From the IMG/VR virus record IMGVR_UViG_3300005573_000857, positions 27,894-91,893 of that record: a stretch of DNA of 64,000 nt. One strand, written 5' to 3'. The position numbers and the translations under genes are program-made. The notes under the pieces are model-generated. The model saw nothing but the letters and a program-made list of their open reading frames with translations. It was not told where the DNA came from and made no database searches. Of this stretch, positions 22,993 through 64,000 are shown piece after piece (the first letter of the stretch is position 1; the number at the start of each line of letters is the position of its first letter). This stretch comes from a virus.

Positions 22993-23204
22993 GTGTTTTC
23001 GGTCAAGAAGCAGTAGAGGAAATTAAGTCTATCGTTAAATCTTGTTTCGACGAAGTGACAAAGAGTGAGAAACAAGAAGCTATTAAGTTAATAGAAGAAA
23101 AACTTAGCAAACTTGTCGCAGACGAGGTGAGTAACTACTTTAGAAAAATTTCTACATATGTTCTATATGGGGAGATTGTCAATAAATTGGAGGAAAAAAA
23201 GTAA
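22989..23204 (+). CDS. Small helical hypothetical protein
   Basis: 71 aa; GGAGG RBS; TAATG coupling to rpoC. Confidence 0.7.
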   Translation: MSVFGQEAVEEIKSIVKSCFDEVTKSEKQEAIKLIEEKLSKLVADEVSNYFRKISTYVLYGEIVNKLEEKK

Positions 23205-25903
23205 TGCCAGAACTCTTTAACATTGACGAGTTTTGCAAAGACCTACCAGAAGTGACGAGTTCGAAAATTAAAGAAAAGGGAAAGTTTAGTCCTCACGGGC
23301 TTTTTTCTGAGCAGATATTCGGTCCAGTTACTAACTACACTTGTCAGTGCGGTAAGTACTCTGGACCTTCTTCTCCAGTTGAGAAATGCGACATTTGCGG
23401 TGTCGAAATAACCTCGTCAATTGAAAGGAGAAGAAGATTCGCCAAAATAGTTCTTCCATTAAAAGTAGTAAATCCGACATTCTACAACTTAATTGCAGTT
23501 ACAGCTGGAAGAGTGAAGAGTCTATTAGACACACTAATGAAGGACGAGAAAAGCGTATTGTACAAAGAAGGAGACGAATATGTAGTAGCTCAAACTGCAC
23601 CTCCGAATGTAAAAGTATGGGAAAGATACGAAGCTATGGAAGAACTTATTAGAGGTCTGGCTACTTACACTGTAGAGAACAGTGACCCAGACGTCCCAAT
23701 CGTTAAGTCTTGGAAATTCATAAAAGACAACATTGACAAGATGTTTATTAAGAACATTATCGTCCTTCCACCAGACTTGCGACCAATCTCGAAAGCTGGT
23801 AATGACGTGCAGAAAGCTGATCGTATAAACTGGTTTTACAACTTTATTCTGGTTAAGAAAGAGAAAATGAGAGATACTATGTTCGATGTTAACCAGAATA
23901 AAGCTCTCTTTTACGCGTACTTTAAGCAGCTACAGAAGGCTGTAAACGAGCTCTTCGACCACATAATAGAGAAGTTGTCCAAGAAAGAAGGACTAGTTAG
24001 AGGGAACATCTTGGGGAAGAGGGTAGATTTCTCTGGAAGAGCAGTGATAGTTCCAAAAGTAACTCTTAACATCGACGAGTGTGGTCTTCCGTACTTTATG
24101 CTTTTGGAAATCTACAAGATGCAGATTGCCAAGCGGCTCGTTGGAACTACCGTAAAAACTCTTAATGAAGCCATAGAGTATGTAGACGAGTGTATTCGAA
24201 TGAAGAGCAAAGACCTGCTTGACGTATGTGAAGAGGTTACTAAGCATGAAGTATGTCTGCTAAATCGTCAACCTTCTTTGCACAGACTGAGTTTAGTTGG
24301 ATTTAAAATCAAAGTCTGTCTTGGTGACGTTATTTACCTCCATCCGCTAGTCTGCTCCGGTTTTAATGCAGATTTCGATGGAGACCAGATGGCTGTTTAC
24401 ATTCCCCTTTCTCCAGAAGCAAAGCAAGAGGTTCGAGAAAAGCTGATGATTACTAAGAACTTCTCGAATCCAGCAAATGCTTCTTTGTCAACTCTTCCAA
24501 ACCAGGACGTAGTCCTTGGTATCTACGCCTTAACTACAAACTCGTTCCCGAATTTAAGAAACTTGGTAGAGTGTAAGGGCAGCTTAGTTACTGAAAGCAT
24601 GGCTATCTTTAATAAGTGCTTGCCTGATGACTACCCTTTAGTAAACAAAGTCGTAACGAAGAAAGAGTTAATCGAGATACTAACAGACATAAAAGAGAAG
24701 TACGACCCGGAAACAGTGAGAGTTGTTCTTGACGAAGTAAAGGAGAAAGGGTTCAGGTACTCTACACTTTTCGGAGCTTCATTGTCGCTTCAGTCCTGTT
24801 ATGTGCCGGACCATGAAAAAGTAAGAGACGATCTTTACTCACCAAGTGATGTAAAAGAACAGATTGCGAAAGTTTCTGGAAAAGAATCTGAAACTATCTT
24901 ACGTGAGAAATTTCCCTATGCCTACATGGTTGAGTCTGGGGCTCGTGGTAGCTGGGACCAAGTTCGTCAGATCGTCTTAACAAGAGGTTTTATTTCGAAC
25001 TTCAAAGGACAAATCTTGAAGACTCCAGTAAAGAGAAGTCTTTTGGACGGACTTACTAGAGAAGAGTTCTTCTTGTCTACTTTTGGTTGCAGAAAAGGTC
25101 TTCTTGATGTTGCACTAAACACTGGAGCATCTGGCTATTTGTCAAGGAAACTAGTGTTTACTGCTGCGAACGCTCTAGTAAGTGAAACAGTTGAAGATTG
25201 TGGTACTACTGATTTACTTGAAGTTTATGTGGACTCGACTAAGAAAGCTAAGATGCTAATTGGTCGGTACTACAAAGATGCGTCTGGTAAACTCGACAAA
25301 ATTACGAAGAAAAACTACGCACAGTTTTTGGGGAAGACTATATTTATAAGGAGCCCAATTTTCTGTCGTAGTCTAGAATTCTGCCACACTTGCTACGGAG
25401 ATCTGTATAAGACTCTGCATAGCCGCTTCGTTGGTGTTATAGCTGCACAAAGCTTAGGAGAGACGAATACTCAGCTAATATTGAGAACGTTCCATACTTC
25501 AGGAGTCGCTGTAGTAAAAGGCGAAGCCTCTCTGAAGCAGAAAGATATAGTAGCAGACTTGAGTGCAGCTTCGAAACTATTACACCAGTTAGAAGGAGTT
25601 AACTATAAAGATTTAGTGCACGATTTGTTCGAAGTCTACAATACTTCTAGAGAAATTTTCTCAGTCCACATTGAAGTTATTGTCTCTGAAATGATGTGGG
25701 CTGGAAACGTTCTTTGGAGAATGGCGAAAAATAGAGACAAGATAACTCCAACGTACCATAGTGTCCAAAGCGTTCCTGCTAGACAAAGCTGGTTACTTGG
25801 TTTCGCTTTTTCTCATCCGAAGTGGAATTTGCTTAGAGGTGTGCAGTATTCTGGTGAGTACGTTGGTCCAATTGATAAGATGCTAAGAGGCGAGAGAATC
25901 TAA
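23204..25903 (+). CDS. rpoC: DNA-directed RNA polymerase beta' subunit (compact, 899 aa)
   Basis: GLFSEQIFGP, CQC..CDIC zinc site, VLPPDLRP, LGKRVDFSGRAVI, LLNRQPSLH, catalytic FNADFDGDQM, SGYLSRKL and TQLILRTFH. Confidence 0.97.
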   Translation: MPELFNIDEFCKDLPEVTSSKIKEKGKFSPHGLFSEQIFGPVTNYTCQCGKYSGPSSPVEKCDICGVEITSSIERRRRFAKIVLPLKVVNPTFYNLIAVTAGRVKSLLDTLMKDEKSVLYKEGDEYVVAQTAPPNVKVWERYEAMEELIRGLATYTVENSDPDVPIVKSWKFIKDNIDKMFIKNIIVLPPDLRPISKAGNDVQKADRINWFYNFILVKKEKMRDTMFDVNQNKALFYAYFKQLQKAVNELFDHIIEKLSKKEGLVRGNILGKRVDFSGRAVIVPKVTLNIDECGLPYFMLLEIYKMQIAKRLVGTTVKTLNEAIEYVDECIRMKSKDLLDVCEEVTKHEVCLLNRQPSLHRLSLVGFKIKVCLGDVIYLHPLVCSGFNADFDGDQMAVYIPLSPEAKQEVREKLMITKNFSNPANASLSTLPNQDVVLGIYALTTNSFPNLRNLVECKGSLVTESMAIFNKCLPDDYPLVNKVVTKKELIEILTDIKEKYDPETVRVVLDEVKEKGFRYSTLFGASLSLQSCYVPDHEKVRDDLYSPSDVKEQIAKVSGKESETILREKFPYAYMVESGARGSWDQVRQIVLTRGFISNFKGQILKTPVKRSLLDGLTREEFFLSTFGCRKGLLDVALNTGASGYLSRKLVFTAANALVSETVEDCGTTDLLEVYVDSTKKAKMLIGRYYKDASGKLDKITKKNYAQFLGKTIFIRSPIFCRSLEFCHTCYGDLYKTLHSRFVGVIAAQSLGETNTQLILRTFHTSGVAVVKGEASLKQKDIVADLSAASKLLHQLEGVNYKDLVHDLFEVYNTSREIFSVHIEVIVSEMMWAGNVLWRMAKNRDKITPTYHSVQSVPARQSWLLGFAFSHPKWNLLRGVQYSGEYVGPIDKMLRGERI

Positions 25904-25926
25904 TAACTAGAAAGGAGGTCTCTGGA

Positions 25927-28900
25927 TTGAGGATAGTAAATCCGTTTTTTCATCTTAGTGATGGGGGTATCTTCGAACTTAGAGAGAAAGACTATGCGTC
26001 AATTGAGCAGACAGTGAGAGAAATGCTAAAGCCAGCTGAAGAAGCTGGTTTCGTTATAAAAGAGTTTGAGTTGAGAGACCAGAGACCGTCTGTACGAGAA
26101 CTGATGCCAACTCTAAAGAAGAATCTGGTAATAGTACTAGAAAAGAACAACTCTGTAGTGAATTTAACTACGCAAATTCCAAAGCTTGTTGACGGAAACT
26201 ATATTGTAATTTCTGGAAGGAAGAAGGTACCCCTCTTCCAGTTGTTCGATTTGCCGATTGTTACAAGAGGTAAATCAATAAAGCTACGAACAAATGTTGC
26301 AACGTTGAGTCTAACTGTAAAGGACAAAAAAGGAGAGTCTGACCCCTTTTACGTATCTCTAAATTTCATGAACAAAGACGTTCCCTTTTCTCTCGTCCTG
26401 TTTTGCTGCTACGGATTCGATAGAGTAGTGGACATGTTTGGACTAGATAAACTCACTGAACTTCCAAGTAACTCGGGTCTTCTTGGTAAGTTGGAATGCG
26501 ATTTCTTTTCGTACTACAGTGAATCGAAAGAATACACTCAAGAAGACTTTGTGCGAGAGCTTGGAAGATACTACACTTCTTACGATGCGAAAAAGAAAGG
26601 TGAAGAAGTAGTTTACGCGCTCGATCTCATTGCGAAAGTAGACGTTCCATCCTCTAGGTTCTTTACAACGGAGTCTGCTGTCAGTGAGTTATTGCAAGCT
26701 CTAAGAATTGGTCACATTGACGATACTGACTTCAGAAATAAAAGAATACGCTGTTTCGAGTACATAGTGCTGGCTAAGCTGGCAAGAGACATTTACAACC
26801 TCTGTATCGCTAGTCGTAACGCTTTGCGCCCAAAGTTTAGTACGAACTCTAAACAAGTTATCTCAGAATGTAAGACTTCGTCAATTATCCAGTACGATCA
26901 GTCACTGAATCCGATAGATGAACTGACAAAACTTAGCAGAGTTAGCTTAGCTGGTCCAGGAGCTTTTACTAAAGAAAATGTCCCAGAGTACTTAAGAGAC
27001 GTTCATCCGTCAATGTTTGGTCGGGTGTGTTCTGTGGACACACCAGAAAGAGAGAACTGTGGTGTATTGCAAAGTCTGTTGCCAAAAGTAAAGCTAACTG
27101 AGCACATGCGGTTCGACGAAGAAGTAGAAGATAAAGCCACAGTTTCGATAGCAGTCTCGATGGTTCCATTTTTAGAGCATGACGACCAAACTAGGTTGCA
27201 GATGGCTTCATCGCAAATGAGACAGGCTGTTACTCTTCTAAAAGTAGAGAAGCCCTACATTCGTTCTGGGTGCGAAGGACTGTACACAGATTATTCGTCT
27301 TTCATAAAAAGAGCTAGAAAGAATGGAGAGATCGTATATCGCGATGAGTCGTTCTGTGTGGTAGTATATGACGACAAAGATTTCGACATCTTTAAGGTCG
27401 GATTCAGGAAAACTCAGACAGAAAATATAGACTTCCTAGTTTGTAAGCATAAAGTTGGAGATAAAGTAAAAGCTGGCGATATAGTAGTTGAAAGCTTCTT
27501 CTGCACAAACGGAGAAATAAAGATAGGAAAGAATTTGTTAACGGTTTTAGCTACATGGCATGGCTTGAATTACGAAGATGCTATTCTAATTTCAGAAGAA
27601 GTTAGAGACCGAGGTGATTTTACTTCTTTACACTTTATAGACTTATCCTTCGTCCTTCCGCCGAACAAGATACTTCTGGATTTGTCAGATGATAGCAAAG
27701 GAAAAACTTATAGACCACTTCCGACTCCTTATAGCAAGATCGTTGTAAAGAGGAAGGATAAGGTCTTTGACATGCAAAGCGATAACGAAGTGCAAGAGGA
27801 AGTAATAGAAGACTATTCAGTTGTTGCTTTAGAGAAGGGTCAGAAGTATGCGGTAGTAAAGGAGATGTATGTAGATAATGATGTAGAAAAAGTTTTCGAA
27901 GAAGAACAAGTTTATAGGACTGAGAGAGACGTAAAAATCTACTCTGTAAATATCTACGCTAACAAATGGTACGATAAAGTTCGCCCATTTGACGAGTGGG
28001 TGCAAGAAACGATAAGAATGCAACAGAAAAGAGAAAGAGATTTTCACGAAAGTCTATACAAGTTTATTCCAAGGGAAAAAGTGCAGGAGTTCATTCGAGA
28101 TAATGGATTAAACAAGTTCACTTCTCAAGGAAGCTACAGAATAAACGGAGAGCTTGTTAATGGAATGTACATAGAGATTCTTGGAGTATATGAAAAGCCG
28201 ATAAACGTAGGCGACAAAATTGGAAATCGGCATGGTAATAAGGGAGTTGTAAATATTCTCCCAAAAGAAAAAATGCCGTTACTAGAAAATGGACGGCATG
28301 CCGAAGTATGTGTAAGTCCGATGTCTACTATCTCGAGAATGAACGTAGGCCAGATCTTCGAGATGCATCTAGCGATGTCTTTACAAGACCTTAAGGCTAA
28401 GCTACTGAAAATGATAGAAGATGGAAAAAGTCAAGAAGAAATGAGAAAGTATCTTCTCGACTACATAAAGATAGTAGATGCTACGAAAGATAACTGGTTC
28501 TACAATCAGTTTGAGAGTCAGTTAGGTGTAATCGACAAGAAGTTTGTAGATGACCTTACTCTAGTGCAACCCCCGTTTGAGTCCTGTTCAAGAGAACAAG
28601 TTCTAGAAGCTTGCAAGTATACGAATACTCCACTTGAGTGTTCGATTTACGATCCAATAACGGGAGAGAAAGTTCTCAACAAAGTTGGATTTGGGTACAT
28701 GTACTTCTTCAAGATGGTCCATATTGCCGAAGACAGGTTAGCTGCTAGAGGCATCGGAACGTATTCGAAAAGAACTCTACAACCTCTTGGAGGGAGAAGG
28801 AACAGAGGTGGACAAAGAGTTGGAGAAATGGAAATGTGTTGCTTTATAGCTCACGATGCTACAGAAAACTTGTACGAAACTCTCACTACAAAGTCCGATT

Positions 28901-29064
28901 CTATCGACCTCAAGAACGAATACTTAAGAACCATTCTCGGATCGGACTTCGTTAGGAGACCCGATAAGATCGACGATGTCCCAGAGGCTGTAAAACTGCT
29001 AGACTCTTATTGCTTAGTAGTCGGTGTAAAGACGAAAAGCGATAAAAAGGAGGGTAGTGAATGA
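25927..29064 (+). CDS. rpoB: DNA-directed RNA polymerase beta subunit, copy 2
   Basis: RDVHPSMFGRVCSVDTPE, PFLEHDD..R.QMASSQMRQA, GDKIGNRHGNKG, SRMNVGQ and GGQRVGEME. Confidence 0.95.
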   Translation: MRIVNPFFHLSDGGIFELREKDYASIEQTVREMLKPAEEAGFVIKEFELRDQRPSVRELMPTLKKNLVIVLEKNNSVVNLTTQIPKLVDGNYIVISGRKKVPLFQLFDLPIVTRGKSIKLRTNVATLSLTVKDKKGESDPFYVSLNFMNKDVPFSLVLFCCYGFDRVVDMFGLDKLTELPSNSGLLGKLECDFFSYYSESKEYTQEDFVRELGRYYTSYDAKKKGEEVVYALDLIAKVDVPSSRFFTTESAVSELLQALRIGHIDDTDFRNKRIRCFEYIVLAKLARDIYNLCIASRNALRPKFSTNSKQVISECKTSSIIQYDQSLNPIDELTKLSRVSLAGPGAFTKENVPEYLRDVHPSMFGRVCSVDTPERENCGVLQSLLPKVKLTEHMRFDEEVEDKATVSIAVSMVPFLEHDDQTRLQMASSQMRQAVTLLKVEKPYIRSGCEGLYTDYSSFIKRARKNGEIVYRDESFCVVVYDDKDFDIFKVGFRKTQTENIDFLVCKHKVGDKVKAGDIVVESFFCTNGEIKIGKNLLTVLATWHGLNYEDAILISEEVRDRGDFTSLHFIDLSFVLPPNKILLDLSDDSKGKTYRPLPTPYSKIVVKRKDKVFDMQSDNEVQEEVIEDYSVVALEKGQKYAVVKEMYVDNDVEKVFEEEQVYRTERDVKIYSVNIYANKWYDKVRPFDEWVQETIRMQQKRERDFHESLYKFIPREKVQEFIRDNGLNKFTSQGSYRINGELVNGMYIEILGVYEKPINVGDKIGNRHGNKGVVNILPKEKMPLLENGRHAEVCVSPMSTISRMNVGQIFEMHLAMSLQDLKAKLLKMIEDGKSQEEMRKYLLDYIKIVDATKDNWFYNQFESQLGVIDKKFVDDLTLVQPPFESCSREQVLEACKYTNTPLECSIYDPITGEKVLNKVGFGYMYFFKMVHIAEDRLAARGIGTYSKRTLQPLGGRRNRGGQRVGEMEMCCFIAHDATENLYETLTTKSDSIDLKNEYLRTILGSDFVRRPDKIDDVPEAVKLLDSYCLVVGVKTKSDKKEGSE

Positions 29065-42881: not shown

Positions 42882-44636
42882 TCACTCAGTTGTCAAATCA
42901 ATATAGTCAGCAAAAGAAAAGCTAGAGTCAATATCTTTCTCTAAGTCGATAGGACCTTTCTTTATTCTAAACATGGGTTCTAGTTTCTGCAACTGGGAAC
43001 TTCCGTCATAGAATTGTAGAGTATTAATGAACGAGCCTCCCATAGCTGAGATCTGGGCTATGTTCTCTTTTACAAACTGTGCAATATCTTCGTTAGTAAA
43101 AGAAGAGAGATTCTCACTGACGTTTAAGTTTAGAACTTTATCGAGTATATTTCCTTTTTCTCCAGCCAAACTTATCGCTAGTGGCGGGTCATACTTTCTG
43201 ACGTAGAAAGCACAAGCTGTAGCTAAAGCTAAGTCGTCTCTACAACCTTCATCACCTTCTACTCTGCCGCTAGCTTTCGAGACTAAACCCACAAGTTCTA
43301 GAGCTAGTCTTCTAGACTTTACGATCTCTGGAGTTTCTGCTATATACGAATAAAGAGAATCGATCATGAGGGGTCGTGTTTTCGAGTTAGTAGAGAGACC
43401 AGTAACGACTTTATTTTCTGACCTTTTCTCTTTATATAGCATTGGAGCAAACTCGCTTCGGTCTAGTGCTTCACATACTTGGTTACCGTAAGAGTTGTTC
43501 TCAACCACCACAATACCTGAGTACTGAGCACAAGCAAGAGCTACAACTTTTGTAAAATCTGTAACTGAGCACTTACCTTGGTATTCGCAGACTTGTTCTA
43601 GTGTTACGTAGTCCCAAACAGTAATTGCAGAGTTGTCTTCCCCATGCTCACCAGCAGTGTCTACGCCAATTAAATAGTACCTTCCCTTTTCTGGCTGCTT
43701 AAACTTCCACCATTCGCCGTTAAATAGTTTAAGTACTTCAATTGGTTTACAGTCTATTGATTGTAGTTTTTCGCATATCTCTTCAGAGAAGAAAGAACCG
43801 CTCCCAGGTAAGAATACTAAGTCTAACTCCTGTTTTATAGCTTTTTCGTCATAACCGAATAGCTTTCGCTGTGTCTCATACCAAGACGGATCACTTGCCA
43901 GTTCTGGAATGTCTTTCCAGTGTATCTTAAATAACTTGAAGATGTCAGAGTTAGATAAAGCTTTCTGGTATCGAGTAAAAAACCACTTTCCAACACCTTC
44001 TGTCTTGTTCGGGGTGCTTAGCAGAACTGTTCCATAGGGTATCCCATTTTGTCTAGCGTGTTTCTGAGAAGTAGCTAAAGCTGAGACCATTCCAGTCCAT
44101 GCTTCTTCAATATGTGGCACAAAAGCTGCTTCATCAATAACTAGAAAAGTAATTGCTTTACCTCTTAGCGTTTTTTCTGGCGTTGACGGATTGACAGGTG
44201 TTGCATACACTTTAGAACCATTGCTCAAAATAAACGTTTGTTCTGTTCTTTTCTTGAACCCTGGTGTCATCCATTTTGGAAGCTTATCTAACATGGACAT
44301 TATATTTCTAGCGAAACTAGTTGCTTCCGGTCCATCTTTAGAAATGATTCCGACGACGACATTGTCGAAAAAAGTGGTAAGCCAAGTGATATAAGCCTGG
44401 ACAATCGTAGAAATTCCAATTTGCCTAGACTTAAGAACTAATACAGTTTTCTCTTGCTCGATCGTTTTTATTAGCTTTAACTGTTCCTTGTAGGGATTTA
44501 AGTAAACGTCGCCACCAGGAAGCTCGATTACAATGTAGTTTCTGCAGAAGTATTCGAAGTCTGACTTACATTTTATATACTCTTGAACTAGTTTTTCTCT
44601 TTCTTCTTTCGTCATGTTTTGTGCACTGCTCTCCAT
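42882..44636 (-). CDS. terL: Terminase large subunit (T4 gp17-like)
   Basis: LKSRQIGIST, LVIDEAAF, LLSTPN; RNase H-like IGVDTA, VENNSYG and DDLALA. Confidence 0.93.
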   Translation of the reverse strand: MESSAQNMTKEEREKLVQEYIKCKSDFEYFCRNYIVIELPGGDVYLNPYKEQLKLIKTIEQEKTVLVLKSRQIGISTIVQAYITWLTTFFDNVVVGIISKDGPEATSFARNIMSMLDKLPKWMTPGFKKRTEQTFILSNGSKVYATPVNPSTPEKTLRGKAITFLVIDEAAFVPHIEEAWTGMVSALATSQKHARQNGIPYGTVLLSTPNKTEGVGKWFFTRYQKALSNSDIFKLFKIHWKDIPELASDPSWYETQRKLFGYDEKAIKQELDLVFLPGSGSFFSEEICEKLQSIDCKPIEVLKLFNGEWWKFKQPEKGRYYLIGVDTAGEHGEDNSAITVWDYVTLEQVCEYQGKCSVTDFTKVVALACAQYSGIVVVENNSYGNQVCEALDRSEFAPMLYKEKRSENKVVTGLSTNSKTRPLMIDSLYSYIAETPEIVKSRRLALELVGLVSKASGRVEGDEGCRDDLALATACAFYVRKYDPPLAISLAGEKGNILDKVLNLNVSENLSSFTNEDIAQFVKENIAQISAMGGSFINTLQFYDGSSQLQKLEPMFRIKKGPIDLEKDIDSSFSFADYIDLTTE

Positions 44637-44920: not shown

Positions 44921-46162
44921 GCGACCTTCTGGGGGACTAAAGCCCCCAGATTCCTGTTACTTTTGTTGGGTCTAACAGAGCGCTAGAGTCACTAGTAGCG
45001 CATTGAGATTTCTTATAGAACTTCTCAATGTTTCTTGACCCGTTTAGATCAGTATCAAGTTGAATCAAACAATCATTACAAACAAATCTTTCTTGTTGTG
45101 GTCTAGAAGTATTTCTACTTCCGCAACTTGAACAAGTTTTAGACGTATATGCTGGATTGATTTTTACAACTAGAATTCCCTGATCTAAACATTTATACTC
45201 CAAGAAGTTTTGGAACATCGAGTAAGGAAAACTGTTAATGATATAATTCAACATTTTTCCTTTAGAAGTCCCAAGTTTTCTTGAAGCTGACCTTCTCAAA
45301 TGTCTCAGATCTTCTAGGACTAGAACGTCTACTCCTTGTTGAAGAAGTTCTTTAGAAATTTGAGAAGTCAATTTGTGCAAATAGTCTTTTGAATAGTTTG
45401 CCAAATTTCGAAGTTTCTGGTTATTCTTTTTACGCTCAAGTTTTCTATGAGCAAGTTGTTTGATATGCTTAAAGATATTATTTGAAAGAACAACTCGTTT
45501 GTAGTTAACATCAAGACCAACTACTTTTGGAATTTGTTTTGGTTGTGGATCTGGTTTTTCTATTTCTATAGAAAGTCTTAAATACAACTTATTGTTACTA
45601 GACCTTTTGTAAATTTGAACTAGTTTAACTTTTCCTTTTGAAAGATCTAGATGTTTTCCAAACAAAGGAAAATACTTTCTAAATAGTTTTAGCCAGATTT
45701 TGGCGTATTTAGTTGGTTTAGTTGTATTAGAAACTTGTTGGCCTTGATCCATGAAAATACTTGCTTTTATTGGTTTCTTTGGAGCTTTCTTGTAATTCCA
45801 AGGAGCATATAAACTTATGAAGTTTTGAAGACATTTAGAATTTATTTGAGGAAATTGTTGTCTGCAAAGTCGATACAAAGACTTTTGATCGTTCCAACTT
45901 GACTTACACAAGTAGAAAACAAATTCTGACAATTGCTGAATCTGTTGTAAAGTATTTTCTAGAAACTCAAGTTTCTGTTTATTTCCAGAAATTCTACAAG
46001 TATAGGATTTTAATGTTTTCATACCCGTTTTTGACTTTCAATTGTATTTTTAGTTATATTTGTTTGTTCTAAATTTAAAACAAATCAGAATCAAGAACAG
46101 TTCTAAAATGATCTCAATTCATCCGGATGACTAAAGTCACCGGCTTTCTTGAGAAAGGAGAT
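44921..46162 (-). mobile_element. Non-autonomous IS200/IS605-family element (tnpB only)
   Basis: On the - strand, left end TTAC|...AAAG-CCGGTGAC-TTTA-GTCATCCGG; right end GAAT-CTGGGGG-CTTTAGT-CCCCCAG..TCGC. Interior is more AT-rich; no tnpA. Confidence 0.8.
44937..46022 (-). CDS. tnpB: RNA-guided endonuclease TnpB
   Basis: RuvC I VVGLDVN, RuvC II VLEDL, YTSKTCSSCG/CNDC zinc finger, RuvC III DTDLNGSRNI. Confidence 0.93.
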   Translation of the reverse strand: MKTLKSYTCRISGNKQKLEFLENTLQQIQQLSEFVFYLCKSSWNDQKSLYRLCRQQFPQINSKCLQNFISLYAPWNYKKAPKKPIKASIFMDQGQQVSNTTKPTKYAKIWLKLFRKYFPLFGKHLDLSKGKVKLVQIYKRSSNNKLYLRLSIEIEKPDPQPKQIPKVVGLDVNYKRVVLSNNIFKHIKQLAHRKLERKKNNQKLRNLANYSKDYLHKLTSQISKELLQQGVDVLVLEDLRHLRRSASRKLGTSKGKMLNYIINSFPYSMFQNFLEYKCLDQGILVVKINPAYTSKTCSSCGSRNTSRPQQERFVCNDCLIQLDTDLNGSRNIEKFYKKSQCATSDSSALLDPTKVTGIWGL

Positions 46163-61623: not shown

Positions 61624-61710
61624 TTTACTTCCTCCAAGATGCTCTAAGGTTTTTAATTTGTTCTCACTCAATATATATTCCTTTCCGTGAGTAAGAAAGG
61701 AGGTGATAAA

Positions 61711-63033
61711 ATGAACGAAGAAAAAGCACTGAAAATTGTTTGGGAGTTACGAAAAAATGGTTACCAAGCGTTTTTTGTCGGCGGCTGGGTTCGTGACATG
61801 CTGCTCGGAAAGAAAACATCGGATGTAGACATCTGCACTAACGCAACACCAGATCGAGTCTACCAAATTTTTCGAGGCACCGCGAAAGTCGAACTCGTTG
61901 GCAAGAGCTTTGGTGTAGCTCTCGTTGGTGGGGTCGAAGTAGCTACATTTAGAAAGGACAAGTATTTTGGCCTTTCTGACAAGAATGTGGAAGTCTCTCC
62001 TGGAACTCTTGAAGAAGATTGCGAACGAAGAGACTTCACCGTTAATAGCATGTACTACGACCCATTTACTAAAGAGATTATCGATTTCGTCGGCGGTCAG
62101 AGAGATCTCCAGACGAGAACAATCCGGTTTATTGGCGAACCACGAAATCGGATTTTTGAGGATCCGAACCGGATTGTCCGAGCTTGCAGATTCCTCGCTC
62201 TTTTAGATGGCCATTTCGAAGAAAGCACATTCGAAGCTCTTAAGAACTACTCTTCATTGGTTGGGAAATACGTAGCACCGGAAAGGCTGAGAGTTGAAGT
62301 ACTCAAAGCCATGAAAGCCCGTAAGCCATCGAAATTCTTTAGGGCTTTACATGATATCGGTGCGCTGAAGTATGTCTTCCCATCTCTAGAAGAGTGTTTT
62401 GGTCTAGAAGGTGGAAGATTTCATGTAGAGACCGTGTTTGACCATAGCCTTCGATGCGGAGACAACATCTCTTGTAAGTTTCCACTTGTTCGTCTCGCTG
62501 GTTTCTTGCATGACGTAGGAAAGCCAAAAGAAATCAAGTTAGACGAAAACGGAGAAGTTTGCTTTAGATGTCACGAAGTGACCGGATCTGAAATAGTAGC
62601 TAGCGAGCTGAGACGTCTAAAGTTTCCAAATCATGAGATAAGATTCGTCTCTGGGTTGGTCAGCTTACATATGAGAGCAACCCAGAAGATGGGTGACAAA
62701 GGAGTGCGGCGATTACTGAGAGAGTGTTCCGAAAGAGGTCTGTCGTGGAAAGACCTTGTGAGAATCTGGTTCGCAGACCACAAGAGAGGTAGTCATCCCT
62801 TCGGGTTCAAGAAGGCGTTAGTTTCTCTCTTCTGGAGAGAACTTAAGCAAAGGCCCAAAGGAGTCTCGTTGGAGGTGGATGGTCACGATGTGTTGCGACT
62901 TCTCTCAGTAAAACCTGGACCGCTAGTTGGAAGGGTTCTTCGAACACTCTTGAATGAAGTACTAGAAGATCCTTCCAAGAACAATAGAGACTATCTATTG
63001 ACTCGCATCGTGCAGGGAAGCTGGGAAGCATAA
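61711..63033 (+). CDS. cca: tRNA nucleotidyltransferase (CCA-adding enzyme-like) with HD domain
   Basis: VGGWVRD, DVDICT, EVATFR, RRDFTVN, EDPNRIVRA, ERLRVE and H..LHDVGK. Confidence 0.9.
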   Translation: MNEEKALKIVWELRKNGYQAFFVGGWVRDMLLGKKTSDVDICTNATPDRVYQIFRGTAKVELVGKSFGVALVGGVEVATFRKDKYFGLSDKNVEVSPGTLEEDCERRDFTVNSMYYDPFTKEIIDFVGGQRDLQTRTIRFIGEPRNRIFEDPNRIVRACRFLALLDGHFEESTFEALKNYSSLVGKYVAPERLRVEVLKAMKARKPSKFFRALHDIGALKYVFPSLEECFGLEGGRFHVETVFDHSLRCGDNISCKFPLVRLAGFLHDVGKPKEIKLDENGEVCFRCHEVTGSEIVASELRRLKFPNHEIRFVSGLVSLHMRATQKMGDKGVRRLLRECSERGLSWKDLVRIWFADHKRGSHPFGFKKALVSLFWRELKQRPKGVSLEVDGHDVLRLLSVKPGPLVGRVLRTLLNEVLEDPSKNNRDYLLTRIVQGSWEA

Positions 63034-63053
63034 CTGTTTTTCCTAGCTTCCCT
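63014..63053 (+). terminator. Hairpin at the end of cca
   Basis: AGGGAAGCTGGGAA..TTCCTAGCTTCCCT. Confidence 0.5.
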
Positions 63054-63175
63054 AGTATTGAACAAACAATAGAGAAAACTAAGAAGAGAGCGAGTCAAGT
63101 AAATATAGAAAAGTAGCTCTGCTATATATATTTCTTTCCAGAATAAAAGAATGGTATATTTACTCGGGAGGACAC

Positions 63176-63481
63176 ATGTTGCCTGTAGCAGTTTTTATAA
63201 TTTGTCTTCTGGACACACTATTTACTTGCATAGGCATCCAGCAGGGATTCATTACGGAAAAGAATCCGCTCGTTATTAAGATAATAAACTATGGAGGGAT
63301 GCCATTATTTATATCTGTAAGAGTGTTGTCCGTGGCTGTAGCGATCTTTCTTCTAGAAAAAGCAAAGAGCAGGGGAGTAATTACAATAAGAACAGCTAAA
63401 GCCATCTATTCTTTCGTTTTGGCTTTATACATACTAGTATTTATAGTATTCACTTTGTGTGTTAATGTATTTGCTTTCTAA
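63176..63481 (+). CDS. DUF5658-like membrane protein
   Basis: LLDTLFT..G..E.NPL motif; three TM segments. Confidence 0.7.
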   Translation: MLPVAVFIICLLDTLFTCIGIQQGFITEKNPLVIKIINYGGMPLFISVRVLSVAVAIFLLEKAKSRGVITIRTAKAIYSFVLALYILVFIVFTLCVNVFAF

Positions 63482-63487
63482 GAAGCT

Positions 63488-63625
63488 AGAGTCTGTGGTC
63501 CTCTTCTTTTCTAAGTTCTCGTGGCCAGGAACTTGGAAAGAAGATTACTTGGATTGGCCATCCAAGGACAGGACCGGGGAACTCACCGCAAATGTGAGAA
63601 AGTGGTTCGAATCCACTGGACTCTA
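63488..63625 (+). ncRNA. tRNA-like RNA with expanded D-region
   Basis: 7-bp acceptor AGAGTCT/GGACTCT; T-arm AGTGG-TTCGAAT-CCACT; anticodon-like CTCAC-7nt-GTGAG; ~80-nt branched insert. Confidence 0.7.
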
Positions 63626-63696
63626 GTTTCTTTTCCAACCTAGCTAATGAAAGAAATAAAGTTAAAAATTAAAAAGTTGCCTGGAAACATGAGAAC

Positions 63697-63756
63697 CAGT
63701 CCGTAAGGGCAGTTAGTCTAAAAAGACTGATTGTCCCTTTTTTATTTTACGGACTG
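63697..63756 (+). terminator. Terminator hairpin nested in an outer stem
   Basis: GGGCAGTTAGTCT..AGACTGATTGTCCC plus T-tract; outer CAGTCCGTAA/TTACGGACTG. Confidence 0.65.
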
Positions 63757-63814
63757 TAGAAAACGAAAAGATAGAAACTGAAAAGGAAAGAATAAAAAAC
63801 CCAGAAAGGAGAAA

Positions 63815-64000
63815 ATGATGTCAAGACCAAAATTTAGTACAAATTCTACTGTTGCAAGAAACAGGAAATTAGTATTGGAGGCATTTAAAAACTTACGCAA
63901 GCAGGGGCTGATTGCAAGGGCGAATTTCCTGTGTTGCTCAAATTGTGCCGGCTCTGAAATTGCGTCTTACGTTTCTAATTTGCCAGTAGAGAAAGCCAAA
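63815..64000 (+). CDS. DUF6891-like protein, 3'-truncated
   Basis: AAGGAG RBS; AFKNLRKQGLIARANFLCCSNCA; open to the window end. Confidence 0.6.
   Translation, partial: MMSRPKFSTNSTVARNRKLVLEAFKNLRKQGLIARANFLCCSNCAGSEIASYVSNLPVEKAK

Follow-up and report, generated by a model that had tools for sequence, protein, structure and literature searches.

Transfer RNA (tRNA)-shaped phage RNAs unable to decode are an old observation, early examples being the species 1 and 2 RNAs of bacteriophage T4 described in the 1970s, and to our knowledge such RNAs are still without an assigned function. RNAs that associate with copies of themselves form another group: the phi29 pRNA self-assembles, and the HIV-1 dimerization initiation site (DIS) works on the principle of a 6-nt palindrome on a hairpin tip. 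T4 RNA C is expressed, as a late RNA 'of yet unknown function' (PMC9697503). YrlA is a tRNA mimic bound by Ro/Rsr (PMC4201824), and 'enigmatic introns' have been reported in the tRNAs of Lak megaphages (PMC6784885). The phage-linked RNAs GOLLD and ROOL oligomerize (PMC12286853), and manA shows that an RNA of <200 nt can do so as well (bioRxiv 10.64898/2026.07.01.735769). Here we analyse a 151-nt tRNA-like element at positions 63481–63631 (+ strand) of a 64,000-nt window, which forms the final 64 kb of the linear 91,893-bp IMG/VR virus record IMGVR_UViG_3300005573_000857 (the full record is called the contig below). On the evidence that follows, we lean towards reading the element as a real gene for a non-decoding, tRNA-derived small RNA, which would be matured to a stable RNA of ~141 nt and whose twin loops would bind a partner.

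Architecture of the RNA

The element folds as a highly stable four-way junction (−64.1 kcal/mol, z = −4.96, RNAfold), and none of 200 shuffled sequences folded equally well. The minimum free energy (MFE) fold and the centroid fold are identical; helix pair probabilities are mostly 0.8–1.0, and loops are unpaired at probabilities of 0.75–1.0, with all four of them open. From 5′ to 3′, the element consists of the following parts:

63481–63487, +, 5′ leader strand of the 7-bp acceptor-stem extension, pairing with 63625–63631
63488–63494, +, 5′ strand of the acceptor stem, AGAGUCU, pairing with 63618–63624
63496–63576, +, 81-nt three-way domain in the D-arm position (MFE fold identical to centroid)
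63577–63581, +, single-stranded GGGAA linker from the domain to the anticodon-like arm (unpaired probability 0.67–1.0)
63582–63598, +, anticodon-like arm of 5 bp with the 7-nt loop CGCAAAU (sequence and fold)
63601–63617, +, canonical T-arm AGUGG-UUCGAAU-CCACU (sequence)
63618–63625, +, 3′ strand of the acceptor stem, GGACUCU, with discriminator A63625
63626–63631, +, 3′ trailer strand of the stem extension

The upper half is that of a tRNA. Its 7-bp acceptor stem (six Watson–Crick pairs and one U.G) is coaxial with the 5-bp T-stem, the T-arm abuts the 3′ acceptor strand with zero spacer, and the T-loop UUCGAAU fits UUCRANY. No CCA is encoded after A63625. The leader and trailer add seven further pairs (63481–87 with 63625–31), giving a closing helix of 14 bp. 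The lower half departs from a tRNA at three places. The D-arm, normally 3–4 bp with a 7–11-nt loop carrying G18 and G19, is replaced by the 81-nt domain; the 7-nt anticodon-like loop has G at position 33, where tRNAs have U33, although A37 is present; and the variable region is 2 nt. On these three counts, the RNA cannot decode.

In the 81-nt domain, a 7-bp basal stem (63496–502/63570–76) encloses two hairpins. Hairpin 1 (63503–43) has 16 bp with one bulge and the loop CGUGGCCA at 63520–27, and hairpin 2 (63548–66) has 7 bp and the loop UGGCC at 63555–59; the self-complementary hexamer TGGCCA lies on both tips (63522–27 and 63555–60). The GG of the GGGAA linker that follows the domain could stand in for G18/G19. 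An initial annotation of this sequence had pointed out the acceptor/T-arm top half with its discriminator A and unencoded CCA, the anticodon-like arm without U33, the possible 7-bp extension of the acceptor and a D-arm replacement of ~80 nt with two TGGCCA tips; all were recovered at the same positions, and the replacement domain appears in both the MFE and the centroid fold.

The fold depends on the strand. The + strand reaches −64.1 kcal/mol and its complement −54.8 kcal/mol, a gain of 9 kcal/mol that is due to five G.U pairs. Together with flanking genes and a terminator on the same strand, this bias favours an RNA read from the + strand over a DNA cruciform.

T-arm-like hairpins are found five times in the 92-kb contig, about the rate expected by chance, and the element at 63481–63631 is the only place where such an arm is combined with a closing helix. 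By our own estimates, a 14-bp helix abutting a T-arm would arise by chance with a probability of ~2e-3 for the whole contig, and two 8-nt loops would share a palindromic hexamer with one of ~3e-5. TGGCCA is frequent in this DNA, with 15 copies in the window (~1 per 4.3 kb) and 16 in the contig; the window count is about three times the 5.4 copies expected, and 15 or more were reached in 0 of 100 dinucleotide shuffles. Codon usage is a possible cause of the excess. Only the two copies in the RNA lie on hairpin tips, the other 13 in the window (14 in the contig) having no comparable context.

Relation to known RNA families

ARAGORN reported no tRNA or tmRNA (transfer-messenger RNA) gene in the window or in the contig. 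In Rfam, no family matched the RNA at its gathering score, and the only contact at E ≤ 10 was between the 17-nt T-arm and the tmRNA model, scoring 10.5 bits where the threshold for gathering is 70. The tRNA model (RF00005) gave no match to the RNA in cmscan, even at E ≤ 10. That neither ARAGORN nor Rfam recognizes the element, a full-length match being absent, bears out the earlier proposal of a tRNA-shaped, non-decoding RNA outside known families.

Three assignments were considered and rejected. A tmRNA is contradicted by pair 3:70, which is A–U and not the alanine identity pair G3:U70, by the negative tmRNA search of ARAGORN and by a match confined to the T-arm and below the gathering score. 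YrlA is contradicted by the lack of an rsr/TROVE neighbour on the contig, by the lack of an Rfam match and by the RNA ends, which form an acceptor stem; neither TROVE (Ro) nor RtcB genes were found on the contig, which covers ~29% of the genome. Finally, an attP site or the 3′ half of a host tRNA is incompatible with the non-canonical anticodon loop and variable region and with the presence of the 5′ strand.

Variation among strains

The region 62900–64000 was compared among contigs from four metagenome sequencing runs, two on sediment, one on a hot spring and one on a rhizosphere, each stemming from a different study; one of these contigs, from run X3, extends ~2.8 kb beyond window position 64000. 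Among these four strain-level variants, three of the 151 positions of the RNA vary, none by an indel, whereas the two intergenic stretches that flank it (325 nt together) contain 22 variable sites, of which 11 are indels (Fisher p = 0.028). The RNA therefore varies as little as the neighbouring DUF5658 coding gene, at about one third of the level of the intergenic flanks. Two of the changes keep pairing: G63485A turns a G.U into an A–U pair in the stem extension, and C63575T turns a G–C into a G.U pair in the basal stem. Both TGGCCA loops are invariant, which has no bearing on covariation. These data are modest but real evidence of purifying selection on the RNA, not evidence of covariation.

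Genomic context

The contig is estimated by CheckV to represent ~29% of a jumbo-phage genome. It encodes a T4-type baseplate protein, baseplate wedge subunits, a large terminase, a tape measure protein and multisubunit RNA polymerase (RNAP) beta-like genes, and the open reading frames (ORFs) of the window read normally with code 11. The features to which we refer below are:

23204–29064, +, two large multisubunit RNAP beta/beta′-like genes
61687–63033, +, cca, a class II tRNA nucleotidyltransferase (CCA-adding/PcnB type) with an HD/HDIG domain, upstream of the RNA
63176–63481, +, gene of a 101-aa DUF5658 protein between cca and the RNA (Pfam DUF5658, E = 3.8e-12)
63707–63746, +, intrinsic terminator with a 13-bp stem followed by a T-run, ~75 nt downstream of the RNA

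Relatives of the RNAP proteins at 51–58% identity are present on ~300 IMG/VR contigs, among them complete genomes of 277 kb and 312 kb, and two of these contigs (up to 312 kb) carry terminal repeats. This set defines a jumbo-phage clade that includes the 29%-complete fragment, and given that the relatives include the complete 277-kb and 312-kb genomes, the RNA element belongs to a jumbo phage. Close relatives of the large terminase (TerL) and of the CCA enzyme were absent from IMG/VR in protein searches. Public sequencing runs place the phage in hot-spring and sediment metagenomes, and no RNA run with the sequence is listed among them. In the structural module, the large terminase gene (42882–44636) is followed by a 361-aa transposase-like ORF at 44937–46022 (−) before other structural genes (phrog_506, E = 3.7e-40); this ORF is possibly a mobile-element insertion.

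The cca protein matches the Pfam families PolyA_pol, PolyA_pol_RNAbd, HD and tRNA_NucTran2_2, and it matches NCBIfam models of CCA tRNA nucleotidyltransferases at E ~1e-58, below the equivalog cut-offs. Its homologues include proteins at 50% identity, and Thermodesulfobacteriota are among the sources of its nearest cellular homologues. CCA-adding enzymes are common in jumbo phages, where they are read as a means of tRNA repair (PMC7824862). The initial annotation, which placed the RNA downstream of a CCA-adding enzyme, was right about the type of this gene, but the DUF5658 gene intervenes, and the last letter of its stop codon TAA (63479–81) is also the base with which the extended RNA stem opens. 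Downstream of the RNA, the terminator hairpin (63707–36) is nested in a further 10-bp helix, CAGUCCGUAA/UUACGGACUG, which encloses the T-run too (63697–63756, +); this unusual arrangement could modulate termination.

Search for homologues and tRNA-like RNAs of related phages

Searches in several collections returned no relative of the RNA. The region had no blastn match among the INPHARED phages. In IMG/VR, a pattern of TGGCCA, CGCAAAT and TTCGAAT gave 0 matches, and one of twin TGGCCA plus the T-loop gave six, consisting of ordinary tRNAs, unrelated matches and a D-armless pair on two related contigs. This pair (L005:1513–1594, +, and L006:7829–7910, −) is an 82-nt tRNA-like RNA with an acceptor stem, a T-arm and one long arm with UGGCCA in a large loop; its sequence is unrelated to that of the RNA at 63481–63631. 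A four-loop scan of JGI metagenomes returned a single match, which has no T-stem and no phage similarity and is apparently coding, and which we took as chance. The pattern scan of GTDB genomes gave at least 120 matches, with none resembling the RNA among the matches listed; those that passed an acceptor/T-arm check (e.g. L085, L115 and L130) have the appearance of class II tRNAs whose D region contains TGGCCA. A covariance model of the RNA (R1), applied to 43 related jumbo-phage records, to cca loci and to tRNA clusters, gave only scores at the level of tRNAs, which is weak negative evidence, R1 being a single-sequence model of limited reach. Collecting homologues in related phages had been proposed with the initial annotation; the strain-level variants do show the low variation described above, and related phages yielded no homologue.

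Homologues of cca are present in 10 of the 43 related records at 32–54% identity (nine of them at 44–54%), and the upstream neighbours of the gene, encoding a 255-aa protein and a HAD-like phosphatase, are kept in most of the 10. Downstream of cca, these 10 records have tightly packed, unrelated ORFs, with no DUF5658 gene and no such RNA; homologues of DUF5658 were also absent from IMG/VR and from all 43 related records. The DUF5658 gene plus the RNA are therefore a lineage-specific insertion in a variable spot, the adjacency of the RNA to cca may be incidental, and the suggested link to the CCA enzyme does not extend to these phages. In the phage with the closest full-length cca homologue (G011), a very stable 121-nt multibranch element (−54 kcal/mol) lies ~900 nt downstream of cca (L214:465–585, − strand of the locus), with a 17-bp closing helix followed by a T-run. 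Having neither a T-arm nor a match in Rfam, this element is another kind of structured RNA at a similar location. The T-arm-like hairpin that precedes cca in L216 was rejected, lying within a small ORF with AT-rich flanks.

The related records carry 2–29 tRNAs each. In or next to their tRNA clusters there are also long tRNA-like genes (105–130 nt) with an acceptor stem and a T-arm, some with an encoded CCA, which ARAGORN does not call:

L232:2039–2166, −, 128-nt tRNA-like element next to tRNA-Arg, in G011
L234:5381–5487, +, tRNA-shaped element of a relative
L234:16873–17001, +, tRNA-shaped element of a relative
L225:100–206, −, tRNA-shaped element of a relative

Further long genes of this type measure 107 nt and 129 nt in G005 and 105 nt in G002. 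They are heterogeneous among themselves and not homologous to the RNA at 63481–63631, and their presence shows a tendency of this jumbo-phage clade towards expanded tRNA-shaped RNAs. One related phage also has a tRNA whose anticodon, CUA, is followed by a 27-nt insertion (L224, G003:C1:25316–25427, −), a possible amber suppressor that would hint at stop-codon reassignment in part of the clade.

Proposed maturation and function

The top half of a tRNA, with its acceptor stem and T-arm, is where RNase P, RNase Z and class II CCA-adding enzymes all act. Since this half is intact here, the RNA would be cut, trimmed and CCA-tailed. It would be transcribed from the + strand, either as the tail of the cca–DUF5658 message or from a start just upstream, with transcription ending at the 63707–46 terminator. 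RNase P would cut at 63487/63488, a site predicted from the tRNA-like geometry, RNase Z or exonucleases would trim the 3′ end to A63625, and CCA would be added by the CCA-adding enzyme of the phage or the host. This would leave a stable RNA of ~141 nt, comparable to RNAs C and D of T4, which are also tRNA-like and stable, and the RNA would be an obvious substrate on which to test the CCA-adding enzyme of the phage itself.

The working part of this RNA would be the 81-nt domain in the D position, with its two identical UGGCCA loops at unequal distances from the junction. The basal stem would stack on hairpin 1, to which its 5′ strand is joined without a linker, placing loop 1 ~16 bp and loop 2 ~7 bp from the junction. 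A kiss between the two loops of one molecule is thus geometrically unlikely given stems of 16 bp and 7 bp, and because the loops are too far apart to pair in this way, pairing between molecules or binding of a dimeric protein is more plausible. As partner, our first choice would be another copy of the RNA, in a kissing-loop dimer or chain, with a dimeric protein as the alternative. Six-base loop–loop helices are feasible in loops of such sizes, as in TAR–TAR* and HIV-1 DIS complexes, and the loop–loop duplex is predicted at −9.1 to −12.1 kcal/mol here, so that self-association via the twin loops appears plausible. A more specific function is a guess that we consider decidedly speculative: the RNA might serve as a self-assembling, CCA-tailed tRNA decoy, in which the loops join copies head-to-tail, giving closed dimers, rings or chains that soak up a tRNA-targeting defence nuclease of the host, or another tRNA-binding factor, without being cleaved. 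Besides a decoy, such an assembly might be a scaffold or a regulator. In the case of a decoy, the phage would build a multivalent array of tRNA top halves with near-anticodon loops that resemble those of Leu-CAA or Cys-GCA, except for G33.

Several observations weigh against a functional small RNA of this kind. It is a singleton, and IMG/VR, JGI, GTDB, INPHARED and the 43 related jumbo phages yielded no homologue beyond the strain level in which covariation of the helices or conserved loop palindromy could show. The strain contigs represent few lineages that share changes, which makes them a weak test of conservation, and the third variant, T63583C (one run, depth 3), would disrupt a U–A pair of the anticodon-like stem. 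Relatives do not share the adjacency to cca, and the neighbourhood of the RNA is seen only in part, the contig (~29% of the genome) ending 370 nt downstream. The 7-bp leader–trailer extension could hinder RNase P and RNase Z or indicate another route, e.g. via RNase III. Lastly, the two TGGCCA loops could stem from an internal duplication rather than from selection.

Alternative explanations

The best-surviving alternative, which we nevertheless consider unlikely, is a cis-acting 't-element' for processing or stability, which would direct RNase P or RNase Z to the 3′ end of the cca–DUF5658 mRNA, so that this end is defined and protected, and release an RNA without a job of its own. Punctuation of transcripts by tRNA-like folds is established in plant mitochondria (PMC1920247), and the extended stem begins exactly at the final base of the DUF5658 stop codon. 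For such a role, however, a bare acceptor/T-arm minihelix would suffice, whereas the 81-nt domain and both loops are invariant or pair-preserving in the strain variants. Moreover, the strong intrinsic terminator 75 nt downstream already provides a protective 3′ end, and the element is present in a single copy in 92 kb instead of as repeated punctuation.

The element could also be a true tRNA gene, Leu-CAA-like or Cys-GCA-like, from which a D-loop insertion or 'intron' of ~63–74 nt is removed to give a decoding tRNA. Introns in megaphage tRNAs have been published (PMC6784885), and the tRNA(CUA) of a relative bears a 27-nt insertion. Among 5185 in-silico deletion variants of the RNA, ARAGORN called 23 as tRNA-Leu, of which 15, with 63–68 nt removed from the domain, as tRNA-Leu(CAA). 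Among tRNAs of related phages, tRNA-Cys(GCA) and tRNA-Trp give the best scores with the 3′ half of the RNA; one change would turn the loop CGCAAAU into a Leu-CAA loop, and a one-base shift would turn it into a Cys-GCA loop. Yet all 23 called variants retain G33, their D-arm is makeshift and their T-stem is shifted or has 4 bp, and the tRNA-Leu(CAA) calls require a shifted acceptor/T register, a D-stem assembled from leftovers, a variable region of 3 nt and G33 where U33 is universal. In addition, the insert is a closed, stable three-way domain on a perfect 6-bp Watson–Crick stem, which has the look of a built-in arm and not of a removable segment, and we know of no bacterial splicing route for a D-loop insertion of such size other than group I. 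We therefore regard splicing into a decoding tRNA as improbable, and take the similarity of the 3′ half, the loop and the deletion calls as pointing to descent from a tRNA, not to a spliced decoding tRNA.

Slightly less probable still is a sequence without function, either a tRNA pseudogene in decay or a stable fold that arose fortuitously. This would account for a singleton that sits in a variable accessory region downstream of cca and was found neither in the 43 related jumbo-phage records nor in any of the collections searched. It fits poorly with the z-score of −4.96 and with variation as low as in a coding gene, ~3-fold under that of intergenic DNA and free of indels, and decay would not be expected to yield a perfect 14-bp closing helix and twin palindromic loops. 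The least credible alternative, a DNA-level element in which the two TGGCCA palindromes, 33 bp apart, bind a dimeric protein as an operator, packaging site or origin and the likeness to a tRNA is incidental, can draw on the ~3-fold over-representation of TGGCCA in the window and on a spacing of the two sites near three helical turns, but leaves unexplained why five G.U pairs, needless for a cruciform or a protein site, make the fold strand-specific, why the other TGGCCA sites have no comparable context and why a canonical T-arm abuts a 14-bp helix.

Comparison with known RNAs

Read as the product of a non-decoding, tRNA-derived small RNA gene, the element shares with a canonical tRNA (RF00005) the acceptor/T stack, the UUCGAAU loop, A73, a 5-bp arm with a 7-nt loop and the order of the junction. 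It differs in having no D-arm, G33 and a 2-nt variable region, and its insert is in the D position and not in the anticodon loop. YrlA (PMC4201824) and tmRNA are similar in that they do not decode, keep the acceptor/T-arm module and are handled by tRNA enzymes. In YrlA, however, the two RNA ends pair into the Ro-binding stem, which occupies the anticodon position, and the gene adjoins rsr, whereas the ends form the acceptor stem here; tmRNA has G3:U70, pseudoknots and a tag reading frame, in contrast to the A–U at 3:70 of this RNA.

With ROOL, GOLLD, manA, pRNA and the HIV-1 DIS, the likeness lies in exposed loops able to pair between copies and, for the phage-associated RNAs among them, in being phage-encoded. 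None of these RNAs matches the element in sequence or in Rfam, and here the scaffold is that of a tRNA, the palindromic loops are two and identical, and self-association is a prediction. The comparison is timely, as manA, ROOL and GOLLD have recently been shown to form RNA-only assemblies, and the element is a compact and clean example in which an intact tRNA top half is joined to a separate domain with two identical self-pairing loops, yielding a testable hypothesis.

For comparison with T4, the sequence of RNA C (species 1 RNA, rnaC, 139 nt), which is not in Rfam, was taken from NC_000866 and folded. The fold has an imperfect 7-bp terminal stem abutting the T-arm CCGGG-UUCGAAU-CCCGG, a 60-nt arm in place of the D-arm and, 5′ of the T-arm, a 10-bp hairpin. 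The two RNAs have in common that they do not decode and are phage-encoded, ~140 nt long and of four-way layout, with a UUCGAAU T-loop, a large arm in the D position and a hairpin ahead of the T-arm. No homology in sequence between the RNA and T4 rnaC is detectable, and R1 scores rnaC at the level of an ordinary tRNA (13.5 bits, E = 0.044). The terminal stem of RNA C has two U.U mismatches and no 7-bp extension, and its single long arm contrasts with the three-way domain with twin palindromic loops described here. Furthermore, the T4 RNAs C and D lie within a tRNA cluster, whereas no tRNA is found in the 92-kb fragment, which ends 370 nt downstream of the element. The 'new class' of the initial annotation was thus too strong a term, considering that T4 RNA C has the same four-way layout and that related jumbo phages carry other non-canonical tRNA-like genes. 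The element is an unusual variant within the poorly understood tRNA-like stable RNAs of phages and not a categorically new class, and its closest known counterpart is T4 RNA C, by a likeness in kind rather than in family.

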